Source: Escherichia coli (GTDB lineage Bacteria; Pseudomonadota; Gammaproteobacteria; Enterobacterales; Enterobacteriaceae). From it: DNA of 64,000 bases. The notes under the pieces are model-generated. The model was not told the DNA's origin and searched no databases. It was given only the letters and a program-made list of their open reading frames with translations. The DNA lies in assembly GCF_011045215.1 (NCBI RefSeq), contig NZ_CP049201.1. The stretch is one strand, 5' to 3'. Of this stretch, positions 2,089-56,876 are shown piece after piece. The translations under genes and the position numbers were made by a program. Within the stretch, counting starts at the first letter, position 1, and each line of letters opens with the position of its first letter.

Positions 2089-2817
2089 TTAGTGAGAGAG
2101 ATAGTTTTTAAATGCTTCGGTTTGCGGCTCGGTAAAGCAGCTCGCGTCGCCTTGTTCTACGATATGACCATTTTCCATATACACCACTCGGCTGGCGGTT
2201 TTACGCGCCACTTCAACTTCGTGGGTGACGATCACCTGGGTAATATTCGTTTCTGCCAGCTCACGAATGATGCTGACGATTTGTGCCGTAATTTCCGGGT
2301 CCAGTGCGGCGGTCGGTTCATCGAACAGCAGTACCTGCGGTTCCATCATCAACGCACGGGCAATAGCAACACGCTGCTGCTGACCACCAGAAAGATGCAG
2401 CGGGTAACGATCGCTATAAGGTTTGAGACGCAGACGTTCCAGCAGTTTTTCTGCACGGGCCAGCGCCTGATCTTTACTCAACCCCAGTACACGGCAGGGC
2501 GCTTCAATCAGGTTTTGCTGCACGGTCAGATGCGGCCACAGGTTGTATTGCTGAAACACCATGCCAACGTTACGACGCAAATCGCGAATCGCTTTGTCAG
2601 AGGGTGTTTTGGTGAAATCGAAATGGTTGCCTGCAATGTTGAGCGTACCGGAGCGCGGCATCTCAAGCAGATTGAGTACACGCAGCAGCGAGCTTTTACC
2701 CGCGCCGCTGGGGCCAAGTAACACCAGCGTTTCGCCCTGTGGGCAATCCAGCGTGATATCGAACAGCGCCTGATGCGCGCCGTAGAAGCAATTAATGCCG
2801 TTTAATTGAATACTCAT
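2089..2817 (-). CDS. artP: Arginine ABC transporter ATP-binding protein ArtP
   Basis: Walker A GPSGAGKS and ABC signature LSGGQQQR; internal start MSIQLNG (242 aa) preferred over the 275-aa extended ORF. Confidence 0.88.
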
Positions 2818-3034
2818 TGACACTCGTATACTGGCAGTCTGATAGCTATTGAGGTCGAAGATAGTACCTTTGACAGAATAATTATGCAATATTTCTGCTT
2901 TAAAAGTTAAAAGCAAAGCGCATTATTCAATAAACATAGCACAAAATAACGGGGGCGGTGGTCGGCGAGCATAAATGTCGGCATTCCTCACGAAATGCCG
3001 GACAATTTACGGGGTTTATTGGTTGATCAAGGCG

Positions 3035-3550
3035 TTAGCGATTCTCGATGGACTGACGGAGCGTACCCGCCGTGGCATGAACGCTACCGCCTAAGTAACG
3101 CACATCGTCGATGACCCAACACTGGCCTTCCTGAATCATTAACACTTCATCCTGCCAACCCTGGTCACCCTGTTTGAGATCCACGCGCAATGGAATGTTA
3201 CGGGCATCACGATTAGGGATAGTCGATGCACTGGCAACGTGGGCGCTATCTGGCAAGGTGGTTCGACTGGAGAATGGATCGTTGGTCAGTAGTTCCCGAT
3301 GGTTATTATCCCGGGAGGCATCGCTAAGCAGTGTCGCCAGTTTGTCGCTCAGATAAGGGCGCAAGGCGGTGATGTCGTTGCTGCGGTGCAAAATGCGGTA
3401 GTCATAAAATTGCTGGGCCACGTTATCCGGGCCTCCTTCAACGCAATGACCACTGCGTGTGCCGTTATCTTTATAAGCTGGAGTGACTGTGGTGCAGGCA
3501 CTGAGGAGCAGTGCGCAGGGGATAAGCATTGTCAATTTGCTGTAGCGCAT
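3035..3550 (-). CDS. ybjP: Lipoprotein YbjP
   Basis: 171-aa ORF with lipobox (LLLSAC) signal; synteny. Confidence 0.8.
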   Translation of the reverse strand: MRYSKLTMLIPCALLLSACTTVTPAYKDNGTRSGHCVEGGPDNVAQQFYDYRILHRSNDITALRPYLSDKLATLLSDASRDNNHRELLTNDPFSSRTTLPDSAHVASASTIPNRDARNIPLRVDLKQGDQGWQDEVLMIQEGQCWVIDDVRYLGGSVHATAGTLRQSIENR

Positions 3551-40748: not shown

Positions 40749-43700
40749 ATGAACAAAAATTGTTACCGCATTATTTTTAACAAAGCCCGGGGAATGCTGA
40801 TGGTGGTGGCAGATATTGCCCGTTCCGGTCGCGCCGGTGCATCACCCTCCTCCCGTACAGGATATCCACGCAGGCAACGTATCTGCCGTGTCACATCGCT
40901 TGCATTCTCCCTGTGGCTGGCCTCGGGGATGGTGCATTCTGTCAGTGCTGCAGGCATTGTCGCAGACCATGGCGCACCGGGGCATCAGCAGCCCACGATT
41001 ACGCAGACAGCCAGCGGCATTCCTCAGGTCAATATCCAGACACCTTCTGCAGGTGGGGTATCGCACAATACTTACAGTCAGTTTGATGTCAGTCATCAGG
41101 GTGTCATTCTGAATAACTCGCATAAAAATGTGCAGACCCAACTGGGCGGCATGGTTGCCGGTAACCCGTGGCTGGCGAAGGGAGAGGCCCGAATCATTCT
41201 TAATGAAGTGAACAGTCGCAATCCCAGCCAGTTGAACGGTTTTGTTGAGGTTGCCGGGAAAAAGGCGCAGGTGGTGATTGCGAACCCGGCCGGCATCAGT
41301 TGCGACGGGTGCGGTTTTATTAATGCGAACCGGGCCACGCTGACCACGGGGCAGCCTCAGATGAAAAACGGCAGTCTGACCGGATTCAGTGTTGAACGTG
41401 GTGAGATTCAGATTACGGGCAAAGGGATGGATGCCTCGCGCACGGATTATACCGATATCATTGCCCGGTCTGTGAAGATTAATGCGGGTATCTGGGCGCA
41501 GGACCTGAAAGTGACCACCGGACGTAACAATGTGGATATTGCACACGGGCAGACTGAGAAAAAAGCCGCTGATGCCTCTTCGCAGCCACAGGTGGCGCTG
41601 GATGTGTCCAGCCTTGGTGGAATGTATGCCGGAAAAATTCGCCTTGTCGGTACGGAAACGGGGGTGGGTGTTCGTAACGCCGGTCATATTGGTGCGCAGG
41701 CAGGGGCGGTTACCCTGACGGCTGACGGACGAATTGAAAACAGTGGCAGTATCAGTGCGAAAACGGATGTGCATCTGGTGACAACCCGGGAGCTGCATAA
41801 CAGTGGTTCTGTTTATGCGGGGCAGGATACGCAGATACAGAGTGATGGTGTATTCACCCATACAGGCTCTGTGGCATCACGTCGCAACACCCGGATTCAG
41901 ACAGCGCGTCTGACCGGCGGTGAGCGGAGTCTGCTGGCCGCCGGGGTGAAAGATGACGGACGTCTGGCGGCAGCGGGCAACCTGACTGTCAGTACCACCG
42001 GCGAACTGGCGGCACACGGACAGGTTCTGTCCGGTGGGGACATGCAACTGAAGGGGCAGGGGCTGGATTTAAGCAACAGCCGGATACAGGGACAACATAC
42101 TGAGCTGGATGCAGGCAGCGGAAATCTGTTCACGCAAAATGCGCAACTGAGTGCCGGTACGCTTTCCGCCCGGACTGCCGGGCAGTTCAGCAATAATGAC
42201 GGCACGATAAATGCCGACACACTGCAGATATCAGCACAGAGCCTGTCAAACCACAGGGGTAAACTGATTCAGACGGGAACAGGGGATTTTTCACTGAACC
42301 TGCCGGGAGGTGTGGATAACCGGGAAGGGCTGCTTGCGGCAAATGGCGCGGTGCGCCTGGATGCACTGAGCCTTGATAATCGCAGGGGGAAAGTGCAGGC
42401 GGCGCAGTCAGGTAGTCTGCAGGTGAGGACAACCGGCGCCGTGGATAACCAGCAGGGAAGTCTGATTGCCAGCCGTGACATCCTGATTAATACACAGGCA
42501 CTGAATAACGACAACGGACTGATTTCAGCTGCTGCCGGAACGGGCAGGATAAAAACACAGCAGGCTGTCAGCAATACTGAGGGACGAATGGAGTCCGCCG
42601 GCAGGCTGGATATTTCGGCAGGGAGTCTGAATAACCACCAGGGTACGGTGGTGTCTGACGGGCTGTCCGTGACGCTGGATGGTGCGCTGGATAATACGTC
42701 CGGCAGACTGCTTTCACAGAAAACGCTGTCTGTGTCAGGCAGCGAACTGGTCTCTGATGATGGTCTGATTCAGTCCGGCAGTGACATGACGCTGGATGTA
42801 CAGGACGGGGTTCTCAGTAACCGGAACACGAAAACACGGGGTGGTATCAGCAGCGCCGGTACCCTGACAGTACGGGCCGGTATGCTGAATAACCAGCAGG
42901 GATTTATGGCGGGTCAGAAGGATATGACCCTGAACGCCGGAACGCTCGATAACCGTCAGGGCGTGCTGGGGAGTCAGGCGTCATTACAGATATCGTCAGG
43001 TACGCTGATGAACCAGAAAGGCGCACTGAAGGCCGGGACGGATATGTTGCTGAGTGGTGGCGATGTCAGTAATCAGGAAGGGACGCTTGCCGCCGGCGGG
43101 GACCTGAATGCGCACCTGAATGTGCTGGAAAATCAGCAGGGGACGGTGGTCAGCAACGGTAACAGCAGGCTGGATGTCACCCGCTCTGATAATCAGGGCG
43201 GCAGACTGGTGGCACAGCAGTCACTGACCCTTTCCTCGACGGATATCAGCAATGATGCAGGTGGTCTGATACAGAGCGGTGCCACACTGAATCTCCGTGC
43301 TGACACACTGAGCAACCGTAACAGTGGTGACCGGGGCGGGGTTATCAGTCAGGGCCCGATGACGCTGAATGCCGGCACACTGGACAGCACTGCCGGTGTG
43401 CTTTTGTCGGGAGATGCGCTGTCCCTGACTGCAGGCGTGGTTAACAATACATCCGGTCAGGTGGTGGCGAATGGTCAGATTGTGGCGACCGGTCTGCCCG
43501 GCCGGAACAGTCTGGCGCTGAACAATCAGTCCGGTCTTATTCAGGGGAAAGGCATCAGCATTAATAGCGCAGGCCGGACGCTGGATAACAGAGGGGGTAC
43601 GCTGAACAGCCTGCAGGAACTGACTGTCAGTACCGGAGCAATGGATAACCGGGGCGGGACCGTGGGGGCGAAAACGACAGCTGACCTGAGCACCACCTCG

Positions 43701-46700
43701 CTGGATAACCGTGAGGGTGGCCGGCTGGTCAGTGAAGGTGAACTCCGTCTGCATACGGGAGGCCTGCAGAACAGCCACGGACAGATACAGTCTGTGGGCG
43801 ACATTCTGTTCGACAGTGTACGGGGCGTTGTGGACAACGTCTCTGGTCTGATTCGCAGTGGTTCTGCCATTACGCTGAACGCCCTGCAGTTTATCAATCG
43901 CCACACGCAGAATACCGGCCAGGGGCTGGAAGCGCAGACAATACACATCACGACGCAGGACCTTGATAACCAGGAGGGCAGTATTCTGGCAGACAGGGCG
44001 CTTACGGTTATGGCAGACAGGACGCTCAGTAATAATGATGGCGTGCTCTCTTCCGGCGCGACATTGTCTGTCAGTGGCCGTCAGCTGGCGTTTTCGAACC
44101 GTGACGGCGTGGTTAAGGCCGGGCAGTCAGTCTCTGTGGATGTCGGTCAGCTTGGTGGTGACGGGAAACTGCTTTCGCCGGGCGATATAACGCTGAAAAG
44201 TAACACAGCGTTCAGTAACAGTGGTCAGACCATTGCAAACGGAAACCTTACGCTTTCCGTTAATGGCGATGTCTCTAATACCGGCAGCCTGCTGGCAGGC
44301 AGCCGGCTTGACCTGAACAGCATCCGCCTTGAAAACACAGAGAAAGGTGAAATCAGTGCCGGGCAGACCTGGCTTAACGTGACGGACACACTGCTGAACC
44401 GTGGGCTGATTGACGGGAAATATACGCATCTTCAGGCGAACACCCTGACGAATTCCGGTACCGGGCGAATCTACGGCGATGCTGTTGGTGTCAGCGCTGC
44501 CACATTTAATAATCTGGATGAAAATGGCGTGGCGGCGACGCTGGCCGGACGTGAGCGTGTGGACCTGGGGGTACAGACCCTGAATAACCGGACGCACAGC
44601 CTGATTTACAGTGCAGGTGATATGCATATCGGTGGCATGCTGGATGCGAATGGCGCCGCCACGGGGAAAGCCGGTGTACTGAATAATCACAGTGCCACGA
44701 TTGAAGCCGCCGGTTCCCTGACACTGAGTGCCGGGCAAATCAATAACGTCAATGACCATTTCACCACGGAGCGCGTGGTGGTCTCCACGGAAAAGGTGAC
44801 TGAGTATCAGCATCGCGGGTCAGATGTCCGCTGGAATGCAAAAGATGAGGGGGTGTTCATTGATAACAACTCCTCTGATGGACTGCTGAACCTGAACACG
44901 CCGGATGATACCGGACATAACAACGACCGGTTCACAAAATATGAATACACCCGTACCGTGGAGGAAACCCGGGTAAAAGACTCCGACCCGGGGAAAATAC
45001 TGTCCGGTGCCGGCATGACGGTTGTGGCAGACAAACTGCTTAATGACAAGAGCCAGGTGGTTGCAGGTGGTCTGCTGGATATGCAGGCCGGTGATGTGGA
45101 AAACGTCAGTGTCAGCGGAGAGCGCCATGTTACTGATAAAGGGACATCCACATATTATTACCGGATAAAAAGAAAAAATAAAAATGACAGGCAGGGGGAA
45201 AGAATTTCCCCTTACGAGCCGCCCCCCGTCATTCAGACCATCACGCTGAAGCCGGGAGAGCTCACCAGCCACGGACAGGTTCAGGGCAGCCAGGTCACGC
45301 TTTCTCCCCTGAAGCCACAGGGAACGGATGTACAGACAGGACTGACCGGAAATGTGGATGCGACAGTAGCCGTTACTGACCGGATACCGCTTCGCCCGGT
45401 GGTGTCAGCCGGTGAACCGGTCATTCTGTTGCCGGGGCAGCAGTTTGAAGTCAGCGCACCTCAGGGCAGTATCCATGTTGCCGGGCCGGATACCCGTCTG
45501 CCGGACAGCAGCCTGTTTAAAACAAATCCGGCAGTGAATGTGCCATATCTGGTTGAAACGGACCCGCGTTTTACGAACCAGAAGACGTGGCTGGGCAGTG
45601 ATTACATGCAGAAGGCGTTTTCTCAGAACGGGGATAACATGCTCAAACGCCTGGGGGATGGTTTTTACGAACAGCGTCTGATTCGTGAGCAGGTTGTCGC
45701 TCTGACCGGGCAACGGTACCTGGACGGATACAGTAATGATGAAGAGCAGTTTAAGGCGTTAATGGATGCGGGTATTGCATTTGGTAAGCAATACAACCTG
45801 ACACCAGGTGTGGCGCTGACTGCTGAGCAGATGGCGTTACTGACCGGTGATATTGTCTGGCTGGTTAACACCACGGTGACACTGCCGGACGGCAGCACGC
45901 AGACGGTTCAGGTACCTCAGGTGTATGCCCGTGTAAAACCCGGTGATGTGAACAGTGCCGGTGCGCTGATTGCCGGCAGGGACATGGTGATGAAGCTGGA
46001 TGGTGACCTGTTTAACAGCGGTAAACTGGCCGGGAAGCAGGCCGTGCAGCTCAGTGCAGAAAACATTCACAACCAGGCCGGCACCATTCAGGGAGCAAAT
46101 GTCAGCCTGACGGCCCGGACGGATATTAACAGTACCGGCGGGCTGCTGCAGGCCACGGACAGCCTGCTGGCGATGGCCGGACGGGATATCAGTCTGACCA
46201 CCACCACCCGTACGGCACAGCGCGACGCCGGGCAGAACCATTTTGAACGTACCAGTATCGACAGTGTGGCCGGCGTGTATGTGCAGAACGACCAGGGAAG
46301 ACTGGTGCTGCAGGCCGGACGGGATATGAATCTGACGGCGGCAACGGTGGTGAATCAGGGTAAGGACAGCCTGACACAACTCAGTGCCGGCAGGGATATG
46401 ACGCTTTCCACGGTGACCACATCCGCGCAGGACAATATTACCTGGGATAAAAATAATCGTCTGTCGCAGGGCGTCACACAGAATACGGGCAGCACACTTG
46501 CCGGTAACGGTGATGTCACGCTGACCGCCGGACGGGATATGACGTCACAGGCGGCATCGCTGTCAGCTCAGAAAGGCCTGGCCCTGATGGCGGGTCATGA
46601 CGTGACGCTGACCGGTGCACAGAATACCCGCTCGCTGGATGAATACCATAAAGTGACCGGCAACAGCGGGATGTTATCGAAAACCACCACTACCACGCAT

Positions 46701-49700
46701 GATGTCACTGACCGCCGGACCATGACGGGCAGTGAACTGAACGGGGATACGGTCAGTATCGGTGCCGGACATAATCTGAACGTCACGGGCAGCAGTGTGG
46801 CCGGGGATAACCGTGTCTCCCTGGCTGCCGGAAATAACCTGAGTATCGGAACGCTGACAGAAAGCAACCGTGAAACACACCTGAAACAGGAGAAAAAATC
46901 CGGACTGATGAGCTCCGGAGGTGTGGGATTCAGCGTGGGCAGCCAGAGTCTGAAGGTCACGGACACCGCAACAGACACCACGCAGAAAGGCAGCACGGTG
47001 GGGAGTGTTCACGGTGATGTTTCCCTTCAGGCAGGTAACCGGTTGACCGTCAACGGCTCTGACCTGATTGCCGGCAGGGACATGGCACTCAGTGGTAAGG
47101 AGGTCAGCATTACCGCCGCCACTGACCGGCATGTGCAGACACATACGGTGGAGCAGAAAACCTCCGGTCTGACGCTTGCCCTGTCCGGCACAGCGGGCAG
47201 CGCCCTGAACACGACGGTGGAGACCGTACAGGCGGCGAAATCTGCCGGAAACAGCCGGCTTGAAGCCCTGCAGGGGGTGAAGGCCGCGCTCTCGGGGGCT
47301 CAGGCCGTGCAGGCCGGACGACTGGCAGAAGCACAGGGCAACCAGAAAGAGAATAACAATACCGTGGGTATCAGCCTCTCTTACGGCAGCCAGTCTTCGA
47401 AATCAGAACAGCAGTCAGAGCAGACGGTGGCGAAGGGCAGTACACTGACCGCAGGTAATAACCTCAGTATTCAGGCCACCGGCTCCGGCGTGAAGGGCGT
47501 GGATGGTGACCTGACGATACAGGGCGGTCAGATAAAGGCCGGGAACAACGTTCTGCTGCAGGCAAACCGTGACGTGAATCTGGTATCAGCAGAAAACACG
47601 TCAAAGCTGGAAGGAAAGAACACATCCAGTGGTGGCAGCGTGGGTGTCGGTATCGGTGTGGGGCCCGGAGGGCCTGGTTTCAGTCTGTCAGCCAGCGCAA
47701 ACCAGGGTAAGGGCAGTGAAAAAGGCAACGGTACCACCCATACAGAAACCACGGTGGATGCGGGAAACCGGCTGACCATTATCAGCGGGCGGGACACCAC
47801 GCTTACCGGCGCGCAGGCTGGCGGTGAAACGGTGAAAGTGGATGCCGGTCGTCATCTGACACTGACCAGTGAGCAGGACAGTGACCGTTATGACAGTAAG
47901 CAGCAGAATGCCAGCGCCGGAGGCAGCTTCACTTTCGGGTCCATGAGCGGTTCGGCGAGTGTGAACCTCAGCCGGGATAAAATGCACAGTAACTACGACA
48001 GTGTACAGGAGCAGACGGGGATTTTTGCCGGCAGGGGCGGGTTTGATGTCACCACCGGACAGCATACGCAACTGAACGGTGCGGTGATTGCGTCCACGGC
48101 AACGGCAGATAAAAACAGGCTGGATACCGGCACACTGGGCTTCAGTGACACTGAAAACCGGGCTGACTTTAAAACGGAACATCAGAGTGCAGGGCTCAGT
48201 ACCGGTGGCAGTGTTGCCGGAAATTTCCTGGGGAACATGGCAAACAATCTGCTGGTCGGTGCAAATCATGAAGGCCATGCGGACAGTACCACGCAGTCGG
48301 CTGTGTCTGCCGGGAATATCACTATCCGGGATACACAGAGCCAGAAACAGGATGTGGCAGACCTGAACCGTGACGTTGCGCATGCAAACCAGACGCTGTC
48401 CCCCATCTTTGACAGGGAAAAAGAGCAGCAGCGGTTGCAGCAGGCGCAACTCATTGGTGAGATTGGTAACCAGGTGGCAGATATTGCCAGAACGGAAGGA
48501 CAGATAGCCGGTGAGAAAGCGAAGCGGGACCCGGCAGCACTGAATCAGGCCCGCGCAGAGCTTGAGGCAGCAGGAAAACCGTACACGGAACAGGATGTGG
48601 CACAGCGGGCCTACAATAACGGTATGGCAGCCTCCGGTTTTGGAACGGGAGGCAAATACCAGCAGGCGATACAGGCCGCAACGGCAGCGGTACAGGGACT
48701 GGCCGGCGGTAATCTGAGTGCAGCCCTGGCAGGTGGTGCAGCGCCGTATATTGCTGAAATTATCAAACAGACCACCCCGGACGGTGCGGGGCGTGTGGCA
48801 GCTCATGCAGTAGTGAATGCCGCCCTGTCTCTGGCACAGGGTAAGAATGCCCTTGCCGGTGCTGCAGGTGCAGCCACCGGCGAGGTGGTGGGAATGATAG
48901 CCACACAGATATACGATAAATCGGTGAGTGAACTGAGTGAGACAGAGAAACAGACGGTCTCCACGCTGGCAACGGTTGCTGCCGGCCTGGCCGGTGGTCT
49001 GGTGGGAGACTCGGGGGCTTCAGCGGTAGCCGGCGCACAGTCAGGTAAGACGACTGTTGAGAATAATTATCTTAGCGTGTCTGAAAAGACAGAGCTTGAG
49101 ATAGCAAAACAGAAGCTTAAAAACAGTAAAGATCCGGCAGAGCGTGAAAAGGCACAGCAGAAATATGATGCATTGCTTGAAAAAGATATCAGCAGTGATA
49201 AGGCAGTAATCGCTGCGTGCAGTAACGGACAGGCAGCCAGCGCAGCTTGTGCCGGTGAAAGACTGAAGGTTATTGCAGCTAAAGGAGGTTATGAAACCGG
49301 ACACTACAATAACCAAGTCAGCGATATGTATCCGGATGCTTACGGGCAGATAGTAAACCTGCTGAATATCACCAGTGTTGATGCACAAAATCAACAACAG
49401 GTGAAGGATGCGATGGTGAACTATGCCATGGTGCAGTTTGGGGTCGATAGGGCGACGGCACAGGCATACGTTGAAACTTATGATGGAATGAAAGTTGTAG
49501 CTGCTTCGATGGCACCAGTAATAGGTGCTGCGGCGGCCAGTAAGATAGAAGTTCTGGCTGGTAAACAACGCTTGTCTAATAGTTTCGAGGTTAGCTCACT
49601 TCCAGATGCAAATGGGAAAAATCACATCACGGCTGTAAAAGGTGATGCTAAAATACCTGTCGATAAGATTGAACTATATATGCGTGGTAAAGCTTCTGGT

Positions 49701-50069
49701 GACCTTGATTCTTTGCAAGCAGAATATAATTCTTTAAAAGATGCAAGGATTAGCAGCCAAAAAGAATTTGCAAAAGATCCAAACAATGCTAAAAGGATGG
49801 AAGTATTAGAAAAACAAATCCATAATATTGAGCGTTCTCAAGATATGGCTCGTGTATTAGAACAAGCAGGTATAGTGAATACTGCCAGTAATAACAGCAT
49901 GATAATGGATAAGTTATTGGACTCAGCTCAGGGGGCTACGTCTGCAAATAGAAAAACATCTGTTGTTGTATCAGGGCCTAACGGTAACGTAAGGATTTAT
50001 GCTACATGGACAATATTACCTGATGGCACGAAAAGACTTTCAACTGTTAATACGGGGACATTCAAATGA
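40749..50069 (+). CDS. cdiA: Contact-dependent inhibition exoprotein CdiA (3106 aa) with VENN-delimited C-terminal toxin
   Basis: Extended signal peptide MNKNCYRIIFNKARGMLMVVADIA, TPS domain (ANPAGISCDGCGF), long FHA-type repeat tracts, VENN at 49056-49067, AT-rich C-terminal 333 aa. Confidence 0.9.
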   Translation: MNKNCYRIIFNKARGMLMVVADIARSGRAGASPSSRTGYPRRQRICRVTSLAFSLWLASGMVHSVSAAGIVADHGAPGHQQPTITQTASGIPQVNIQTPSAGGVSHNTYSQFDVSHQGVILNNSHKNVQTQLGGMVAGNPWLAKGEARIILNEVNSRNPSQLNGFVEVAGKKAQVVIANPAGISCDGCGFINANRATLTTGQPQMKNGSLTGFSVERGEIQITGKGMDASRTDYTDIIARSVKINAGIWAQDLKVTTGRNNVDIAHGQTEKKAADASSQPQVALDVSSLGGMYAGKIRLVGTETGVGVRNAGHIGAQAGAVTLTADGRIENSGSISAKTDVHLVTTRELHNSGSVYAGQDTQIQSDGVFTHTGSVASRRNTRIQTARLTGGERSLLAAGVKDDGRLAAAGNLTVSTTGELAAHGQVLSGGDMQLKGQGLDLSNSRIQGQHTELDAGSGNLFTQNAQLSAGTLSARTAGQFSNNDGTINADTLQISAQSLSNHRGKLIQTGTGDFSLNLPGGVDNREGLLAANGAVRLDALSLDNRRGKVQAAQSGSLQVRTTGAVDNQQGSLIASRDILINTQALNNDNGLISAAAGTGRIKTQQAVSNTEGRMESAGRLDISAGSLNNHQGTVVSDGLSVTLDGALDNTSGRLLSQKTLSVSGSELVSDDGLIQSGSDMTLDVQDGVLSNRNTKTRGGISSAGTLTVRAGMLNNQQGFMAGQKDMTLNAGTLDNRQGVLGSQASLQISSGTLMNQKGALKAGTDMLLSGGDVSNQEGTLAAGGDLNAHLNVLENQQGTVVSNGNSRLDVTRSDNQGGRLVAQQSLTLSSTDISNDAGGLIQSGATLNLRADTLSNRNSGDRGGVISQGPMTLNAGTLDSTAGVLLSGDALSLTAGVVNNTSGQVVANGQIVATGLPGRNSLALNNQSGLIQGKGISINSAGRTLDNRGGTLNSLQELTVSTGAMDNRGGTVGAKTTADLSTTSLDNREGGRLVSEGELRLHTGGLQNSHGQIQSVGDILFDSVRGVVDNVSGLIRSGSAITLNALQFINRHTQNTGQGLEAQTIHITTQDLDNQEGSILADRALTVMADRTLSNNDGVLSSGATLSVSGRQLAFSNRDGVVKAGQSVSVDVGQLGGDGKLLSPGDITLKSNTAFSNSGQTIANGNLTLSVNGDVSNTGSLLAGSRLDLNSIRLENTEKGEISAGQTWLNVTDTLLNRGLIDGKYTHLQANTLTNSGTGRIYGDAVGVSAATFNNLDENGVAATLAGRERVDLGVQTLNNRTHSLIYSAGDMHIGGMLDANGAATGKAGVLNNHSATIEAAGSLTLSAGQINNVNDHFTTERVVVSTEKVTEYQHRGSDVRWNAKDEGVFIDNNSSDGLLNLNTPDDTGHNNDRFTKYEYTRTVEETRVKDSDPGKILSGAGMTVVADKLLNDKSQVVAGGLLDMQAGDVENVSVSGERHVTDKGTSTYYYRIKRKNKNDRQGERISPYEPPPVIQTITLKPGELTSHGQVQGSQVTLSPLKPQGTDVQTGLTGNVDATVAVTDRIPLRPVVSAGEPVILLPGQQFEVSAPQGSIHVAGPDTRLPDSSLFKTNPAVNVPYLVETDPRFTNQKTWLGSDYMQKAFSQNGDNMLKRLGDGFYEQRLIREQVVALTGQRYLDGYSNDEEQFKALMDAGIAFGKQYNLTPGVALTAEQMALLTGDIVWLVNTTVTLPDGSTQTVQVPQVYARVKPGDVNSAGALIAGRDMVMKLDGDLFNSGKLAGKQAVQLSAENIHNQAGTIQGANVSLTARTDINSTGGLLQATDSLLAMAGRDISLTTTTRTAQRDAGQNHFERTSIDSVAGVYVQNDQGRLVLQAGRDMNLTAATVVNQGKDSLTQLSAGRDMTLSTVTTSAQDNITWDKNNRLSQGVTQNTGSTLAGNGDVTLTAGRDMTSQAASLSAQKGLALMAGHDVTLTGAQNTRSLDEYHKVTGNSGMLSKTTTTTHDVTDRRTMTGSELNGDTVSIGAGHNLNVTGSSVAGDNRVSLAAGNNLSIGTLTESNRETHLKQEKKSGLMSSGGVGFSVGSQSLKVTDTATDTTQKGSTVGSVHGDVSLQAGNRLTVNGSDLIAGRDMALSGKEVSITAATDRHVQTHTVEQKTSGLTLALSGTAGSALNTTVETVQAAKSAGNSRLEALQGVKAALSGAQAVQAGRLAEAQGNQKENNNTVGISLSYGSQSSKSEQQSEQTVAKGSTLTAGNNLSIQATGSGVKGVDGDLTIQGGQIKAGNNVLLQANRDVNLVSAENTSKLEGKNTSSGGSVGVGIGVGPGGPGFSLSASANQGKGSEKGNGTTHTETTVDAGNRLTIISGRDTTLTGAQAGGETVKVDAGRHLTLTSEQDSDRYDSKQQNASAGGSFTFGSMSGSASVNLSRDKMHSNYDSVQEQTGIFAGRGGFDVTTGQHTQLNGAVIASTATADKNRLDTGTLGFSDTENRADFKTEHQSAGLSTGGSVAGNFLGNMANNLLVGANHEGHADSTTQSAVSAGNITIRDTQSQKQDVADLNRDVAHANQTLSPIFDREKEQQRLQQAQLIGEIGNQVADIARTEGQIAGEKAKRDPAALNQARAELEAAGKPYTEQDVAQRAYNNGMAASGFGTGGKYQQAIQAATAAVQGLAGGNLSAALAGGAAPYIAEIIKQTTPDGAGRVAAHAVVNAALSLAQGKNALAGAAGAATGEVVGMIATQIYDKSVSELSETEKQTVSTLATVAAGLAGGLVGDSGASAVAGAQSGKTTVENNYLSVSEKTELEIAKQKLKNSKDPAEREKAQQKYDALLEKDISSDKAVIAACSNGQAASAACAGERLKVIAAKGGYETGHYNNQVSDMYPDAYGQIVNLLNITSVDAQNQQQVKDAMVNYAMVQFGVDRATAQAYVETYDGMKVVAASMAPVIGAAAASKIEVLAGKQRLSNSFEVSSLPDANGKNHITAVKGDAKIPVDKIELYMRGKASGDLDSLQAEYNSLKDARISSQKEFAKDPNNAKRMEVLEKQIHNIERSQDMARVLEQAGIVNTASNNSMIMDKLLDSAQGATSANRKTSVVVSGPNGNVRIYATWTILPDGTKRLSTVNTGTFK

Positions 50070-50551
50070 TAAATGTGAATAGTACCGCAAAGGATATTGA
50101 AGGTTTAGAAAGTTACCTAGCTAATGGCTATGTAGAGGCTGACTCTTTTAACGACCCAGAGGATGATGCGTTAGAGTGTCTCAGTAATTTATTAGTTAAA
50201 GATTCGAGGGGGGGGCTGTCATTTTGTAAAAAAATACTTAATTCAAATAACATTGATGGTGTTTTTATTAAAGGTTCGGCGCTGAATTTCTTATTATTGT
50301 CAGAACAGTGGTCTTACGCCTTTGAGTATTTGACAAGCAATGCGGATAATATAACTCTTGCAGAGCTTGAAAAGGCGCTTTTCTATTTTTACTGTGCAAA
50401 AAATGAGACAGATCCTTATCCTGTACCAGAGGGTTTATTCAAAAAACTGATGAAAAGATATGAAGAACTGAAAAATGACCCTGATGCAAAATTTTATCAT
50501 CTTCATGAAACGTACAATGATTTTTCAAAAGCTTATCCTCTGAATAATTAG
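50066..50551 (+). CDS. cdiI: Putative CdiI immunity protein for the main CdiA-CT
   Basis: 161-aa AT-rich ORF; start overlaps cdiA stop (ATGA at 50066-50069). Confidence 0.6.
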   Translation: MINVNSTAKDIEGLESYLANGYVEADSFNDPEDDALECLSNLLVKDSRGGLSFCKKILNSNNIDGVFIKGSALNFLLLSEQWSYAFEYLTSNADNITLAELEKALFYFYCAKNETDPYPVPEGLFKKLMKRYEELKNDPDAKFYHLHETYNDFSKAYPLNN

Positions 50552-50780
50552 AAGCTATCGCCATGGAATATTGTCTATGACTGCATGGAAGGATGATGGT
50601 CATAGTGTGTTGGGAGCTATTCTTTAACAGATTTGGGGGAAATGGTGTAACTGGCTGAAAGGGCGCGTCAGGGCAAAAAGTTGTTGCGCCGGAATTATAG
50701 CAGGACAAAGCGGTTTTAACGCGCTGAAAGCACAGGGAAAACTTGTTTTATCACAGCAACCTGCGGCGGAAAGAGTTGTT

Positions 50781-51716
50781 GTTGAGAATAACTTTTTGAC
50801 CGCGGATCAGATCGATAGCTTTGCGGCAAAAGCAAAAGGGTGTGAAGTACGTGGCGACTGCAAACAGATTGTAAAGGAGATGGAGGAGCTCAGCCTTAAG
50901 CAACAGCAGGAAATGATAGCTGTCTGCGCAACAAACCCTGCGGCCTGCAAAGAGAAATTCGGCGATATACCAGCTAAAGGAATGCTTGTACGAGAAGCGA
51001 TAGATCGTGTGTTAGGTGCAGATGTACCGTCTGCAATGAAGAATGATATGTCTTCGTTGTTAGCTCAGCAGATCGAAGCGGAAGGTGTTGTTACCAGTAC
51101 TGAATTTGCCTGTCAGCTACAAAATCGTTACGGTATAGACAAGCAACAGGCTGAAATCCTTGCCGTCGCAGCATTGGGAGCAGTGACAGGTGGGATGGGG
51201 AAATCAGGTACTTCAACGGTAACTAAAAACATCGTTGTGGTTAATTCAGGTAAGAAAGGGGCCTGGAATCAAGCAATGAATAAGCCGGAACCGAATACCG
51301 TTTATAAGGTCGATGGAAATAAAACATACCAGACTGATGCATTGGGAAGAACTAGTTCAGTTGAGGGTATACTAGTTGCTTCGAAAAGCGACAGAAACAC
51401 TTATCAGCAATGCAAGGCCGGGAAATGTGGTAGCTCTGGTGATGAAGGTGGTCATTTAATTGCCAGTATTTTTAATGGTCCTGGCGAAAAACTCAATCTT
51501 GTTCCTATGGATGGCAACCTGAATAAAGGTGTATGGAAACAGATGGAAAACACATGGGCTAATGCTTTGAAAGATGGCAAACAAGTTAATGTTAAAATAG
51601 AACCTGTTTACACTGGGGAGAATAAGCGTCCTGAAAGCTTTAGTGTAACATACTCTATTGATGGAGGCCGTCCTGTTATCAAAGACATCAGCAACACACC
51701 TGGAGGGGTAAAATGA
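50781..51716 (+). CDS. Orphan cdiA-CT module 1 (VENN-prefixed toxin domain, activity unknown)
   Basis: VVENN at 50781-50792 without upstream CdiA body; about 310 aa follow, with a His-containing segment GDEGGHLIASIFNG. Confidence 0.6.
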   Translation, partial: VENNFLTADQIDSFAAKAKGCEVRGDCKQIVKEMEELSLKQQQEMIAVCATNPAACKEKFGDIPAKGMLVREAIDRVLGADVPSAMKNDMSSLLAQQIEAEGVVTSTEFACQLQNRYGIDKQQAEILAVAALGAVTGGMGKSGTSTVTKNIVVVNSGKKGAWNQAMNKPEPNTVYKVDGNKTYQTDALGRTSSVEGILVASKSDRNTYQQCKAGKCGSSGDEGGHLIASIFNGPGEKLNLVPMDGNLNKGVWKQMENTWANALKDGKQVNVKIEPVYTGENKRPESFSVTYSIDGGRPVIKDISNTPGGVK

Positions 51717-52051
51717 ACGAATTAGATGATCTGCATAATAAAATAGGTCAGTTATTAGTGGATGCCGGTCCTGCTAATGCGATGAAGATCATTGCTCGTG
51801 CTAAATTATCACTAGATGGTGAGTCATGTGAGTATGAGTATGATTATCTTGATCAAGAGGGAGATGAAGATTGGTTCGTTCCTGATAAGTTAGCCAGTCA
51901 CGATCTTAGGCTACTGTTAGTTAAAATGAGGGATTTTTACATCCGAAATAATATGACTAACGGGAAACCAGCATGGATAGGTTGTGAAATAATCGTTGAT
52001 ATACCAGAAGAAAAAATTAGCATAAACTTTCAATATGATGATGAACTATGA
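51713..52051 (+). CDS. Orphan cdiI module 1 (putative immunity protein)
   Basis: 112-aa acidic ORF; start overlaps the orphan toxin stop (ATGA). Confidence 0.55.
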   Translation: MNELDDLHNKIGQLLVDAGPANAMKIIARAKLSLDGESCEYEYDYLDQEGDEDWFVPDKLASHDLRLLLVKMRDFYIRNNMTNGKPAWIGCEIIVDIPEEKISINFQYDDEL

Positions 52052-52215
52052 TCTAGGCCCCGGGATCTCCACAATGCCCATAGCGTGTACGGTGGAACAA
52101 AGCGTGTCGGGGAAAAAATCGGCGGGCAGCGAAACGCAACAGAATAAAGGTTGTAACAAACTGAAAGAAAAGGGGAAAATCGTCTCCTTCACCACAATGC
52201 GCGTCAGAGAGAGTT

Positions 52216-52710
52216 GTTATTGAGAATAACTTCTTAAGCTCTAAAGAAGCCCGACAATTCGATGAAGAACTGGTGGAATGCAAGGCTTCTGGTGGAGACT
52301 GTAAATCTGTTATTCAGAAATATCTGGATATCAGCAACCAAAACAGTAAGGAACTGGCTGAAGCCTGTACTGGCGGTGGTGTTGCATGCGTAACTTGGGA
52401 GGAATTAATTCAGGGAAGGACTAATGTTGCTAATGTTGCTAATGATCCACATTCCGGACAATTCAGACTGGATGAAAAACTTAAGGATCCCGATGCGGTC
52501 GCTATTGTGAATTATCTCAACGGCTCAGACCTCAAGTTCCTTAAAGATAATATTACAGAGGGGGATCGCTTACTGTCTGTTATCAGCGATCCAACTTCAT
52601 GGCCTGTTGCTGTAATGGGAGGAAAGGCCTTTATCACCAATGCAGTCAATAATACTAAAGAACAGCTTATAGCTGTGGGGGTTGGTGTTGGATTAGGGGC
52701 CGGTATTTAG
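52216..52710 (+). CDS. Orphan cdiA-CT module 2, N-terminal part (VIENN-prefixed)
   Basis: VIENN at 52216-52230, then Cys-containing region ECKASGGDCKSVIQKY similar to module 1; ends at TAG 52708-52710. Confidence 0.5.
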   Translation, partial: VIENNFLSSKEARQFDEELVECKASGGDCKSVIQKYLDISNQNSKELAEACTGGGVACVTWEELIQGRTNVANVANDPHSGQFRLDEKLKDPDAVAIVNYLNGSDLKFLKDNITEGDRLLSVISDPTSWPVAVMGGKAFITNAVNNTKEQLIAVGVGVGLGAGI

Positions 52711-52751
52711 CAACAGGCAGCGTTGCCCTGTTACCGGGGAGTGCCCAGGCT

Positions 52752-53231
52752 ATGTGGTTACTTGGTGCCGGGACAAATGCCGGGATGCAGTATGCAGATA
52801 GTGGTGAAATAAACCCGGTCAACTCAGTGGCAGCAGGCTGGATAAATGTGATAACCATGGGGCAGGGCTGGAAAGGGACAATAGCCTGGAATGCGGCAGG
52901 TGGAGCATTAACCAACGCCATAAACGGAGATGATCCTCTTACTGGGGCGATTACAAATGGAGCGGGGGCCGGGTTTGGATATGGGGTTGGCAATTATGTG
53001 GTCAAGCCTGCTGCAAATACAATCGGTAAATGGATAACCGGTGGCTGGAATCCTAAATTCGATCCGACTCTACTAAAATATACTGAAGTTAAAGGGCAGT
53101 TAGGTCTATCTAAAGAAATGGTACCGAGTAAGATCCCTGGTGCTGTGGGTAATGCGGGTGGTAGTTTATCATCTGAGTTTGGAAGCTCCATTATCCAGAA
53201 AAAGAAAGATGCAATGGAGGCTGGGAAATGA
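52752..53231 (+). CDS. Glycine-zipper-rich protein, probable C-terminal toxin part of orphan module 2 (different frame)
   Basis: 159-aa ORF with Gly-rich hydrophobic stretch (GAITNGAGAGFGYGVGNYVV); stop overlaps the next small gene. Confidence 0.45.
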   Translation: MWLLGAGTNAGMQYADSGEINPVNSVAAGWINVITMGQGWKGTIAWNAAGGALTNAINGDDPLTGAITNGAGAGFGYGVGNYVVKPAANTIGKWITGGWNPKFDPTLLKYTEVKGQLGLSKEMVPSKIPGAVGNAGGSLSSEFGSSIIQKKKDAMEAGK

Positions 53232-53461
53232 AGAACCTTCTTATTGTTGTCTTATTAATGACTGTATGCATATTTGGTTTGTTTATAGTCGGTTCGATTT
53301 TTTATCTTCTTCTGAAGATATTTATGTATTTTTATTTGAATGCCCCAATATCATTTGAAGTTTTTCAGTTTTCTAGACTGTTAAAAATGAGTGTGTATGG
53401 GGGGGGGATCTTAGGCTTGGGTATTGGTTTGTTGCATATCATGAAAGTTAAGGGGTTCTGA
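53228..53461 (+). CDS. Small two-helix membrane protein, putative immunity protein of orphan module 2
   Basis: 77-aa very AT-rich ORF with two hydrophobic helices; ATGA overlap with upstream ORF. Confidence 0.5.
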   Translation: MKNLLIVVLLMTVCIFGLFIVGSIFYLLLKIFMYFYLNAPISFEVFQFSRLLKMSVYGGGILGLGIGLLHIMKVKGF

Positions 53462-53464
53462 AAT

Positions 53465-53605
53465 GTTGTTGAGAATAACTACCTCAGCTACGACGAGGTA
53501 CATGCTTTTGACAGAGAAATGACTGTCTGTCGTAAAGCTGATCGTGAATGCGGAGATATTCAGAACAAGTATGCTGTAATTAATGCTGATAACCGGTTGA
53601 AATAG
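53465..53605 (+). pseudogene. Orphan cdiA-CT module 3 remnant (VENN plus 41 codons)
   Basis: VVENN at 53465-53479 followed by a short Cys-containing peptide and stop at 53603-53605; no immunity gene follows. Confidence 0.5.
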
Positions 53606-53726
53606 CATATTAATGTAGCTGTTGTTCCTCTGACGTATCAACCACCCTCAGAGTGATTGACATCAGATAGAAATATTAGCATCATTATTTCATCAAATAA
53701 CTCTCATTAACAATGGAGATAATAAA

Positions 53727-54284
53727 ATGAAAAAACTGTCAGTTCTTTCAGCCATCATATTATCAGTGGCAAGCGGTTCCGTGCTGGCTGACAACCATTC
53801 GTTTTCTGTCGGTTATGCACAGAGTAAAATTCAGAACTTCAAGAATATTAGAGGGGTAAACCTGCAGTACAGGTATGAATGGGACTCCCCGGTCAGTATT
53901 ATGGGCAGTTTCTCCTGGATGAAAGGGGATGGTAATCAGGAATATCATTCATATGGCGATTCAATTAAAAACCAGGTTGATGCAAAATATTATTCCTTAC
54001 TGACCGGCCCCGTATGGCGCATTAACGATTATATGTCACTGTATGCGGCTGGCGGCGTGGCGCATGTTAAAGCTGATGGTAAAACAGCATGGACAAACGT
54101 TGATGGTTATTTCGCCAGAGAAAATATTTCGAAAAAATCCACATCTTTTGCTTATGCTGCCGGGGTAATGATCAATCCGACAAGTAATATTACAATTAAT
54201 GCCGGATATGAAGGAACCAGAGCAAAACTTGGCGATAATTATTCCATTAATGGATTCAATATTGGCGTGGGTTATCGCTTTTAA
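53727..54284 (+). CDS. Ail/Lom/OmpX/PagC-family outer-membrane beta-barrel protein
   Basis: 185-aa ORF with signal peptide, alternating aromatic/hydrophilic strands, terminal ...GVGYRF. Confidence 0.75.
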   Translation: MKKLSVLSAIILSVASGSVLADNHSFSVGYAQSKIQNFKNIRGVNLQYRYEWDSPVSIMGSFSWMKGDGNQEYHSYGDSIKNQVDAKYYSLLTGPVWRINDYMSLYAAGGVAHVKADGKTAWTNVDGYFARENISKKSTSFAYAAGVMINPTSNITINAGYEGTRAKLGDNYSINGFNIGVGYRF

Positions 54285-54852
54285 TAAAGTAGAATGAACA
54301 TAATAGCGTTCATATCTGTTTTTTTACTTAACCAAGCGGTACATATATGTACCGCTTGTCTGTAATAAATCAATACCGCCTGTAACGGTACGAATGACTA
54401 TTGCCATGAACGCAATCATGTTTCTGTTGTTGCCGAACATCGTTCTGTGCAGAGGCTTTTGGTGTGCCTTCCATCAGCCAGCGTAATGATTCTCAGGCAA
54501 TTTTGTATCGTTTCGGTTAACTCATACTGATGCGTCGGTGGCGGGGCATCCGAACGATCGCAGTCTGACAATGGTCGATTTATTTTGCTTGCGCAGGGGC
54601 GAGCGCCAGGCTGGTATCGGAGGCGGGTTCTGAAGGACTGAGTCGGGTAATTGCGTCAGGTCGCGAAGTACTGACACGGGTACTGGTGGCAGGTGATGAA
54701 GTGCAGCCCCGGGAATGGCTCCGGGCTGACTCAGGTTCTGATTCGCTGTCAGCCCGCGTGGTGGCTGGCCTGGCTCATTTCCTGTCGTCAGGCGTTCAAC
54801 TCCCGACTGCAGATTATGGCACGCTGCAAGAACACCTGACGACAGGTATCAC

Positions 54853-56355
54853 TCACCCGGAGAAGGTAAATCCCTCAAGGGGCAGCAACTCTGCCAGTCG
54901 CTCCTCTGGCCATTCCGGCAGACGCGCCAGGACGTCTGTCAGCCAGGCATGTGGCTCCAGACCATTACGTTTTGCCGTTTCCAGAAGGCTCATTATCTGT
55001 GCCGCGCGGTTTCCGGCCATCAGTGAACCGGCGAACAACCAGGCCTTTCGTCCCATAACGACCGGGCGGATAGCACGCTCGCAGATATTGTTGTCCAGGG
55101 GCACGGCTCCGTCACCCAGGAAGCAGCTCAGTTCATCGCGCCGGTTCAGGATATAATTAATCGCTTTGTTTAGTGGTCCGTCGGGCGGACAGCACGGCTC
55201 CTGCTCTTCAAGCCAGGCAAACAGGTCATTCACTATCGGCCGGGAATACCGTTGTCGCCATTGCCGTATTTTTTCCACAGGACGTTCACGGATGAACTTC
55301 TCAATGCGATAAAGACCCGCGATTTTTCTCAGCGCCATGGCTGCACGGGGCTCCCTGCTGGCCTTATACAGACTGGCGAAGCCGCGTCTTGCGTGGCTCC
55401 AGCAACAGGCAGATGTAATACCGGGGTCATTATCCGCCAGAGATTTGTACACGCTGTATCCGTCACTCACCAGCGTGCCACCACGCCAGCCCTGCAGCCA
55501 GGCCTCAGGATATCTGAGGGCCCGTCCGGTCTGCGAGTCAAAACAGACGACCGGCGGGCCGCTTCTTTCTCCGCTGACGTAAGCCCACAGCCAGCCGGAG
55601 CAGGATTTACCGCCTTTCCGGGTATCAAGGAGCCTCAGGGACGTTTCATCTGCATGAATAACATCCCGTGTCAGAAGCTCGTGGCGTAACAATTTTGCCA
55701 GCGGGGCCAGTGCAGCGCCAGCAACACCGACCATATCCGCCATTGTACTGACGGGGAGCTCCACACCCATTCGGGAGAAAATGTGCTGCTGGCGATACAG
55801 GGGCAGATGGTCGGTATATTTGCTGATGACAACCTGTGCGATGACCGATGGCTCAACAGCACTTTTCGGAAGGATATGTGCCGGCATTTTTCCGCTGAAC
55901 ACTTTCTCACAGCAGGGACAGCTGTACTGCGGGCGGATATAGCGGTGGACCACAACCTGTGCGGGGATATATTCCAGCTTCTCGCTGACTTCATCGCGAA
56001 TGAAGTGCAGGGGGGCATCACAGTCAGGACAACGTTCCTCAGCTGGCGGGATAACCTTTTCAGCACGGGGAAGATGTGAAGGCAAGGGCTTACGAACAGG
56101 ACGTGTTGTTTTTTCTTCGTCCCCGGTCTGAGGAAGCAGTTTGTCCAGACGCGCCGAGATTTCTGCGATATCCGCGTCAACATCCTCTTCGAACAGGGAA
56201 CGCTGCATCCCGGCCAGCGATTCGCATTTTTTACCAAAACGCTGCTGGCGTGCGAGCTTCATCTGCTCTTCCAGGATGCGGATACGGTTCTGAAGTTCTG
56301 CAATATTCCGGTCTTTTTCCAGCACCATATTTGCAAGGTTCTGACTCTCAGCCAT
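54853..56355 (-). CDS. IS66-family transposase TnpC
   Basis: 500-aa ORF; N-terminal leucine-zipper-like coiled coil, Cys-rich zinc-finger region (CPDCDAPL...CPCCE), DDE-type core. Confidence 0.8.
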   Translation of the reverse strand: MAESQNLANMVLEKDRNIAELQNRIRILEEQMKLARQQRFGKKCESLAGMQRSLFEEDVDADIAEISARLDKLLPQTGDEEKTTRPVRKPLPSHLPRAEKVIPPAEERCPDCDAPLHFIRDEVSEKLEYIPAQVVVHRYIRPQYSCPCCEKVFSGKMPAHILPKSAVEPSVIAQVVISKYTDHLPLYRQQHIFSRMGVELPVSTMADMVGVAGAALAPLAKLLRHELLTRDVIHADETSLRLLDTRKGGKSCSGWLWAYVSGERSGPPVVCFDSQTGRALRYPEAWLQGWRGGTLVSDGYSVYKSLADNDPGITSACCWSHARRGFASLYKASREPRAAMALRKIAGLYRIEKFIRERPVEKIRQWRQRYSRPIVNDLFAWLEEQEPCCPPDGPLNKAINYILNRRDELSCFLGDGAVPLDNNICERAIRPVVMGRKAWLFAGSLMAGNRAAQIMSLLETAKRNGLEPHAWLTDVLARLPEWPEERLAELLPLEGFTFSG

Positions 56356-56474
56356 GGCTTTTGCACCATGGCAATTGCCAGAGCGCGAAGCTGTTCAGGG
56401 TCACTGGTGGTACTGAGAAGCGAGATATCCATGCGGTGGATTATATGACATCACGCATGGATATTCATTATATT

Positions 56475-56876
56475 TCATTGAGTTATTGCGTTGCTCTGAG
56501 CATCTTCGGGTTCTTCCTGGTATACCCATTTTGCCAGGTCATGCCCTTTCACCTGTTGCCAGTCAACCCCACAGACCAGCCAGTGAAACTCATCCTGTGT
56601 GAGATGCCATGTGGCATCACCTTTCCGGGGCCAGCGGAAGCTTCCCCGGTGCAGTCGTCGGGTACACAGCCATACGCCATGTTTGTCCCACCGGAGAACT
56701 TTTATGCGGGAGCGGACTTTATTGGTGAAGACAAAAGCAGCACCGTCATGCCATGCAGCGTTAAGTTCGTTCTGGACGTACTGTGTCAGTGTGTCGATAC
56801 CCCGGCGCATATCGACGGGTTTTACGACCAGGAATACGTTATCAGGCGTCAGCATGGCGAAGAGCCCGGAAAACAT
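56475..56876 (-). CDS. IS66-family accessory protein TnpB (Orf2)
   Basis: 133-aa ORF (MLTPDNVFLVVKPVDMRRG...) between tnpA and tnpC. Confidence 0.7.
   Translation of the reverse strand: MFSGLFAMLTPDNVFLVVKPVDMRRGIDTLTQYVQNELNAAWHDGAAFVFTNKVRSRIKVLRWDKHGVWLCTRRLHRGSFRWPRKGDATWHLTQDEFHWLVCGVDWQQVKGHDLAKWVYQEEPEDAQSNAITQ

Follow-up and report, generated by a model that had tools for sequence, protein, structure and literature searches.

The second orphan cdiA-CT/cdiI module behind an Escherichia coli cdiBAI locus (52216-53461 of the window, by which we mean the whole 64,000-nucleotide stretch analyzed here) is best explained as an out-of-frame chimeric pseudogene of two CDI ionophore toxins, one of group 4 and one of the group 6 M15 type. 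At a probability that we put at roughly 85%, the chimera is inert as a toxin and has kept immunity to M15-type toxins. The host assignment is straightforward, as the macAB-aqpZ housekeeping stretch of the window is 99.5% identical to many complete E. coli genomes.

The CT regions of CDI ionophore toxins consist of two domains: an entry domain at the N-terminus, by which an inner-membrane protein is hijacked, and an ionophore domain at the C-terminus, for which a five-helix bundle is predicted (PMC11630599). The E. coli toxins of this kind fall into six groups by entry domain, and a glycine zipper is the sole sequence motif common to the family (PMC11630599). Group 4 entry domains use the inner-membrane protein YciB, as published for CT-VREC0495 and CT-Eict (PMC11630599). 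CT-M15, the prototype of group 6, depolarises its targets; it depends on DtpA or DtpB, and CdiI-M15 blocks it (Halvorsen 2024, PMC11630599). Immunity proteins to these ionophores are two-helix membrane proteins of 72-100 aa (PMC11630599). Orphan modules have been described separately: their cdiA-CT fragments are without initiation signals and are not detectably made, and their cdiI genes, which have their own Shine-Dalgarno sequence and ATG, are co-transcribed, expressed, and protective (Poole 2011, PMC3150448).

The locus is laid out as follows.

40749-50069: cdiA, full-length, 3106 aa.
50066-50551: the main cdiI.
50796-51716: orphan 1.
51713-52051: immunity gene of orphan 1, 112 aa.
52216-53461: orphan module 2, the subject of this analysis, after orphan 1 and its immunity gene.
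53462-53605, plus strand: start of a third orphan (NVVENNYLSYDEVHAFDREM...), found by translation, which stops after 47 codons, is without an immunity gene, and sets the downstream limit of module 2.
3' of this third VENN fragment: an Ail/Lom outer-membrane protein gene, then IS66 genes.

Like other orphans, module 2 lies 3' of cdiBAI, starts with VENN-coding sequence, and has no translation initiation signal; the first in-frame start codon of its upstream frame is a GTG at 52273, 3' of the VVIENN motif. A VENN restart right after cdiI, of the kind that begins the third orphan, was also seen in three further loci (L001, L003, L004). No Rfam family was found in 50000-54600, and a scan for promoters and terminators around module 2 returned nothing exceeding chance. 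The features of the module itself are these.

52213..52230, plus strand: VVIENN, the VENN pre-toxin motif with V replaced by I, marking the start of the orphan cdiA-CT (from translation; no in-frame start codon 5').
52219..52641, plus strand: complete entry domain assigned to group 4 (YciB-type), residues 1-141 from the VENN position, ending ...KAFITN (from identity to SCU-152 and M18, and from the Eict boundary).
52424..52441, plus strand: 9-bp in-frame tandem duplication (AATGTTGCT, two copies), adding 3 residues to the entry-domain remnant (from alignment with SCU-152 and M18).
52642..52707, plus strand: N-terminal 22 residues (AVNNTKEQLIAVGVGVGLGAGI) of the ionophore domain that belongs to the group 4 toxin, reaching about 20 residues into its first helix; the remainder of this domain is absent together with the 74-aa immunity gene.
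52705..52710, plus strand: recombination junction ATT/TAG, with 1-2 nt of microhomology (from a three-way DNA comparison).
52707..52733, plus strand: last 9 residues (L50-L58) of a group 6 (DtpA/DtpB-type) entry domain and linker (from comparison with CT-M15).
52734..53231, plus strand: complete CT-M15-type ionophore domain (P59-K223) and stop (from 170/173 identity to M15).
53216..53220, plus strand: Shine-Dalgarno-like GGAGG, 7 nt 5' of the cdiI start codon (read from the sequence).
53228..53461, plus strand: cdiI, coding for a CdiI-M15-type immunity protein of 77 aa, a two-helix membrane protein that carries R3N and E30K (from 75/77 identity to the ORF that follows cdiA in M15 and in M9).

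The reading frames reported in a first-pass annotation of this DNA, which had been made from the letters alone, were all placed correctly. Frame 1 from 52213 reads ...ASERVVIENNFLSS..., with VIENN at 52216-52230, and continues as ...ASERVVIENNFLSSKEARQ... to a TAG at 52708-52710, so that the VIENN-prefixed ORF does stop at 52710. The 159-aa ORF (52752-53231) lies in a frame other than that of the VIENN ORF, and the 77-aa ORF occupies 53228-53461, its ATG overlapping the TGA of the 159-aa ORF (ATGA). The region had looked unknown at that stage because neither the ionophore nor its CdiI is represented in Pfam, NCBIfam, PADLOC, or the PDB. In our own searches of Pfam, NCBIfam, and PADLOC, neither the three products nor the intact parent CTs had a significant match; the lone weak family match, DUF6862 (E = 0.049), fell where the group 4 entry domain begins.

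Comparison with individual toxins was more informative. Hereafter, we refer to the left, group 4 sequence as type A and to the right, group 6 sequence as type B. For the translated piece from 52216 to 52707, amino-acid identity is 95.1% to the CT of a full-length CdiA (E. coli SCU-152) and 83.5% to the CdiA-CT of strain M18 (WP_073527780.1); at the nucleotide level, 52220-52707 shares 97% identity with the C-terminal toxin region of the SCU-152 full-length CdiA. The M18 CdiA has been assigned to group 4 and is 99.66% identical to CT-B088 (S1 Appendix, PMC11630599). By homology to toxins that their authors placed in group 4, we therefore assign the upstream piece to the group 4 entry domains. 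The four Cys of such domains are kept (C-x7-C, C-x6-C), and the upstream linker, ...ASERVVIENN, is similar to the linkers found in intact group 4 orphans, e.g., P0026 (...QQPASERVVVENN). The end of the piece, ...KAFITNAVNN TKEQLIAVGVGVGLGAGI, fits the domain boundary drawn for the E. ictaluri (Eict) toxin, which its authors placed within ...AFITNAVNN at N142 (primer CH6271, PMC11630599). In SCU-152, the same sequence goes on as ...GAGIQYGTTGEV... for 127 residues further, after which comes a hydrophobic ORF of 74 aa (CdiI).

The downstream piece has a different source. From 52707 to 53231, the window encodes CT-M15 from residue 50 to its end, identical at 170/173 residues to strain M15; the differences, given as M15 to window in the numbering of the 173-aa stretch, are T62A, V89F, and S144G. 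From 52707 onward, the DNA is 98% identical to the last 174 codons of a 3238-aa CdiA of strains M9 and M15, which are followed there by the same 77-aa ORF (the M15 pair is APL26259.1/APL26260.1). In M9 and M15, the CT follows directly on VENNLLGGSEW..., and in many strains the right-side sequence also occurs as intact orphans running from VENN to the end. As the boundary between the entry and ionophore domains of the M15 toxin was set at Leu58 by a hybrid-construction primer (CH6273, PMC11630599), the window keeps CT-M15 residues 50-223 and is missing entry-domain residues 1-49. No single polypeptide here carries both domains: the foreign entry domain is in the other frame and ends at the TAG at 52708-52710.

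The glycine-rich part had been proposed to be a membrane-acting toxin. That proposal is right in that the part is an ionophore domain nearly identical (170/173) to that of the depolarising CT-M15, but without its entry domain the remnant is most likely inert. The description of glycine repeats within hydrophobic stretches likewise proved half right. Glycine makes up 18% of the downstream frame (173 codons, 52710-53228, with the 159-aa ORF among them), and two overlapping GxxxGxxxG motifs, GAGAGFGYG and GAGFGYGVG, lie at nt 52959-52991 (residues 84-94 of the 173-aa stretch), where an alignment shows the G/Y/G/N columns around the glycine zipper to be conserved in group 4 and group 6 homologues. 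"Hydrophobic" was an overstatement: because the GRAVY of this frame is about 0 and its Kyte-Doolittle score never exceeds 1.6 in any 19-residue window, the product is amphipathic and not classically transmembrane. An AlphaFold2 model of the ionophore part, built on a 35-sequence alignment, was mainly helical (10-31, 36-48, 53-71, 76-110, and 155-170) but of a confidence (mean pLDDT 47.6, pTM 0.38) too low for the packing to be judged; the predicted five-helix bundle comes from PMC11630599. A sequence search of the PDB with the ionophore CT found no relative.

The join between the two pieces can be placed to the base. When 52200-53700 was compared by megablast with 5,426 complete E. coli genomes, all alignments began or ended at 52707, and no record in those genomes spanned both sides of this position, either in that search or when it was repeated with 52030-52760. 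Base by base, the join reads ...GGGGCCGGTATT / TAGCAACAGGC... (GGTATT / TAGCAAC). Type A continues as ...ATTCAATAC (more fully, ...GGTATTCAATAC), and type B reads ...GCATTAGCG (more fully, ...GCCGCATTAGCGACAGG). The type B frame begins at 52707 with TTA, the codon of Leu50 of CT-M15, one base off the type A frame, and the TAG stop at 52708-52710 was created by the joining of type A to type B. GC content rises from 43% to 52% across the junction. Because only 1-2 bases are common to both sides, we regard the junction as illegitimate and not as a homologous crossover. It is not a clean domain swap either: the ionophore domains of groups 4 and 6 are homologous throughout, with GAGI/QY of type A aligning with NAGM/QY of type B, so that half of helix 1 is present twice at the junction. 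The two ORFs are not one toxin split by a simple frameshift, as had been suggested; the halves come from two toxins, group 4 upstream and group 6 (DtpA/DtpB-type) downstream, joined illegitimately and out of frame. As an orphan CT, the module thus falls short of a complete toxin, its frame being broken at 52708-52710 between sides of different origin.

The 77-aa ORF, on the other hand, is the immunity protein that it had been taken for, being 75/77 identical to CdiI-M15 and paired with a partner 170/173 identical to CT-M15. It is small and very hydrophobic (GRAVY 1.43), it has two such segments (a long one at about 4-36 and a Gly-zipper segment at about 55-72), and its start overlaps the CT stop. 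CdiI-M15 protects against CT-M15, and a few residues can shift specificity in the CDI ionophore family (PMC11630599), so the R3N and E30K substitutions could alter the specificity of the window's protein. Given how published orphan modules are expressed, this CdiI is likely the only functional product of module 2, and its gene is probably co-transcribed with cdiBAI; as no promoter-like signal exceeding chance lies near the module, expression would need read-through from cdiBAI.

The junction recurs. The exact 145-aa upstream ORF is present on 9 contigs, and we retrieved seven of these loci (L016-L022), drawn from two Logan run assemblies and five NCBI assemblies. The junction string is present in every one of the seven, and their sole departure from the window across 52100-53700 is one downstream base. 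Their upstream flanks vary, L016 and L019 being 99.5% and 98.7% identical to the window, respectively, both with indels. A pattern allowing 1-5 junction bases matched a single JGI metagenome contig (L037), which has the same three-T allele, and matched nothing among the GTDB representative genomes. The junction is thus a real, inherited allele and not a sequencing error, and resequencing, which had been suggested, is unnecessary because independent assemblies reproduce it. For the same reason it is barely credible that the stop at 52708-52710 is an error of sequencing or assembly, or that programmed frameshifting bypasses it so that a hybrid toxin is made. The frame change does sit in a short T run, but the identical sequence stands in 8 further contigs, which stem from different assemblies and sequencing runs and from a metagenome; a -1 shift on GGT-ATT-TAG would need the P-site tRNA-Ile to re-pair with UAU, at a site that is not slippery, and the upstream frame has no initiation signal in any case. 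Nearest to the frameshift suggestion is the idea that the module was once a functional in-frame hybrid of a group 4 entry domain and an M15-type ionophore domain, broken by loss of a single T (ATTTTA to ATTTA), which we consider unlikely, if the least so of the alternatives. One T inserted at the junction gives GGT ATT TTA GCA ACA, which reads in frame as ...GAGI-L50-ATGSVALL...; the junction is only 8-9 residues before the boundary of the functional entry/ionophore hybrids built by Halvorsen et al.; and there is a natural in-frame protein, P0039, in which a group 4 entry domain is followed by one and a half ionophore domains. Yet all 9 junction copies carry the three-T run, and an in-frame copy is absent from 5,426 E. 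coli genomes, from JGI metagenome contigs, from the GTDB species representatives, and from 5.8 billion clustered proteins. In this last collection, a search with the conceptual hybrid found no high-identity full-length in-frame match: type B proteins cover about 52% of the query at 98% identity, and ordinary group 4 toxins cover about 95% of it at ≤ 61% identity. The in-frame hybrid would moreover hold the duplicated half of helix 1, and the frame is not under selection, because orphan CTs are untranslated (PMC3150448).

The other suggestion made for the 159-aa ORF was that it is a separate small toxin, which in its fullest form would be an independent membrane toxin translated from the ATG at 52752, with the 77-aa protein restraining it in the manner of a type I-like toxin/antitoxin pair. 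This ATG has a weak GGGGAG 10 nt 5', the ORF overlaps the start of the immunity gene, and gene callers predict the exact 159-aa sequence in 183 blocks of the assembly collection. The same ORF is called in intact orphans, however, and there only as the ionophore domain read from the first ATG inside it (Met65). In 8/8 retrieved loci with the exact ORF, an intact VENNLLGGSE... orphan or CdiA lies upstream, and the codons 5' of the ATG are in frame (...VVVENNLLGGSE(W/L)LQTEK...ATGSVALLPGSAQA-MWLLG), so that in every other locus retrieved these codons are the interior of a longer VENN-prefixed CT or a full-length CdiA. The ORF is without any entry domain and without the first 6 residues of the ionophore domain. 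When CT-M15 is made in the cytosol, it is toxic only with its entry domain, in the presence of the DtpA/DtpB receptor, and with an N-terminus that has been precisely processed, and the full CT-M15, with or without VENN, is non-toxic until its N-terminus is engineered (PMC11630599); because of these requirements, the entry-less fragment from Met65 is unlikely to be active, and we judge an independent toxin to be very improbable. A more speculative reading, which we hold to be quite improbable though not as much so as an independent toxin, takes the chimera as a snapshot of the shuffling of entry and ionophore domains in orphan arrays, stable and one base away from a YciB-entry/M15-ionophore hybrid; in a weaker variant, re-initiation of the 159-aa ORF 41 nt after the stop would give it a cell-autonomous role with CdiI. 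If the reading of a shuffling snapshot is true, a single T insertion and recombination at VENN could load CdiA with a toxin of new receptor need, with the matching immunity already present. Set against all of these, an inert out-of-frame chimera with a retained immunity gene is the explanation that we prefer.

Such a chimera would have arisen when orphan modules, whether neighbours or newcomers, recombined or underwent a deletion between them. The event would have removed the group 6 module's VENN and entry domain and, on the group 4 side, the 74-aa cdiI and the greater part of the ionophore domain. In the simplest model, a deletion of about 1 kb would have occurred between an intact group 4 orphan and a group 6 orphan following it. 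The corresponding ancestral array, a group 4 orphan and its cdiI directly 5' of a group 6 orphan, was not found in ten loci with the 74-aa group 4 CdiI, and type B sequence was present in 0/10 type A loci examined. If the module recombined onto cdiA at VENN, translation would end after the entry domain. No deliverable toxin comes from module 2, because its CT frame is broken and the 159-aa ORF lacks VENN, a secretion context, and an entry domain. The 77-aa CdiI would be an inner-membrane protein that binds the ionophore helices of CT-M15-type toxins as they arrive and so shields the cell against neighbours armed with such toxins.

Each half of the module can be set beside its published counterpart. 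The right half resembles CT-M15/CdiI-M15 in the ionophore domain and 8 linker residues (170/173), in the CdiI (75/77), in the glycine zipper, in the ATGA overlap of CT stop and cdiI start, and in the VENN fragment that restarts right after cdiI. Unlike CT-M15, it has no VENN and no DtpA/DtpB entry residues 1-49, which are replaced out of frame by the sequence of another toxin, and it belongs to an orphan, whereas the M15 toxin is the end of a full-length CdiA. Like the group 4 toxins CT-B088, M18, and SCU-152, the left half has a VENN (here IENN), an entry domain in full, and the first part of an ionophore domain, but it ends 22 residues into the latter, has no 74-aa CdiI, and carries the 9-bp tandem duplication. 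As in the orphan modules of Poole 2011 (PMC3150448), among them the 11-module array of E. coli EC869, the module starts at VENN without an initiation codon, lies 3' of cdiBAI, has a cdiI with its own Shine-Dalgarno sequence and ATG, and stands in tandem with other orphans and IS elements; it differs in that its CT is interrupted and chimeric, so that recombination onto cdiA alone yields no working toxin. It also recalls the engineered swaps CT(Eict-EC93) and CT(M15-EC93) (Fig 9, PMC11630599), in that a group 4-type entry domain precedes a heterologous ionophore domain with a junction near the boundary; the natural junction, unlike the engineered ones, is out of frame and carries a partial duplicate of helix 1.

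Orphan 10 of EC869 was considered as the same module and rejected: its immunity protein, CdiI-o10, starts MKLINPLKINK (primer CH2362), unlike the 77-aa protein. An O157:H7 orphan that was matched agrees in its entry domain and early helices and differs in its C-terminal helix and its immunity protein.

As for database records of these loci, RefSeq gives the parent CdiA proteins the label "tRNA nuclease", and the cdiI gene is often missing from its annotation.

The toxin family, the M15 toxin/immunity pair, the modularity of the domains, and the architecture of orphan modules are already published, and the only addition made here is the recognition of this orphan as a chimeric out-of-frame pseudogene common to a small set of E. 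coli assemblies. Three ORFs that were unannotated or misleadingly annotated are now correctly named. For the strain, our reading predicts immunity to M15-type ionophore toxins together with an inability to deploy one. For the family, the module is one more natural example of recombination near the boundary between entry and ionophore domains, and it fits both the published modularity of these toxins and orphan arrays made of usable and decayed toxin parts.

The region around orphan module 2 (52216-53461), in which a group 4 entry-domain remnant is followed by an out-of-frame CT-M15-type ionophore domain and a 77-aa cdiI gene, comprises the following features:

49002-50551: main CdiA-CT and cdiI, EC869 type
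50796-52051: orphan 1, a DUF6862-type entry region, Endonuclease_NS_2 toxin and 112-aa immunity gene
52424-52441: 9-bp tandem duplication (AATGTTGCT twice) within the group 4 entry-domain remnant of orphan 2
53462-53605: start of the third orphan, NVVENNYLSYDEVHAFDREMTVCRKADRECGDIQNKYAVINADNRLK*, opening one codon past the cdiI stop of orphan 2
53727-54284: Ail/Lom outer-membrane protein gene, next after the third orphan fragment
54853-56876, minus strand: IS66-family genes (500-aa transposase and 133-aa TnpB-like ORF), immediately downstream of the orphan array

The main CdiA-CT, of EC869 type, matches PDB 6VEK (E = 2e-214) and 6CP8 and is followed by a cdiI of 161 aa; in other strains (loci L004 and L010), this same CT/cdiI pair is present as an orphan. 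The toxin of orphan 1 is EssD-like (PDB 8GUO match, E = 1e-15), and this module appears intact, in contrast to orphan 2. The third orphan breaks off at 47 codons, and no immunity gene accompanies it.

Within orphan 2, the duplication adds three residues relative to the group 4 CdiA-CTs of E. coli SCU-152 and M18, a change consistent with an untranslated fragment undergoing neutral decay. A natural in-frame protein of 522 aa on a 456-kb NCBI contig (P0039) begins with a group 4-like entry domain and continues with roughly 80 residues from one ionophore domain and then a second ionophore domain, which is complete and divergent. Fusions like that of the window therefore also exist in frame elsewhere.

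Among the M15-type relatives, the 77-aa cdiI downstream of cdiA is left unannotated by RefSeq in E. coli M9 (L003, 3522-3755) and M15 (L036). An O157:H7 orphan (L007, strain FRIK944, 2354-3261; L006, 4798-5468) has the M15 entry domain and, like the window, the first of the ionophore helices in common with this type, but then changes to another C-terminal helix (...GNMGASITSEMTGTELQKVINDKLKKGERE) and carries a different CdiI protein of 76 aa. This switch is the sub-group polymorphism at the CdiI-contact helices, as described by Halvorsen 2024 (PMC11630599). In S4 Table of that paper, the names "TMC005-mid-for/rev" (CH3953/3954) and "M15-mid-for/rev" (CH4127/4128) appear to be interchanged, because CH3953/3954, labelled TMC005, encode the M15 sequences VENNLLGGSEW and ...HIMKVKGF*; this is relevant only when sequences are assigned from that table.

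The arrays of M9, MIN10, and ZYB62 are also broken up by IS66/ISCro1 copies and fragments, and such elements may be drivers of array rearrangements.
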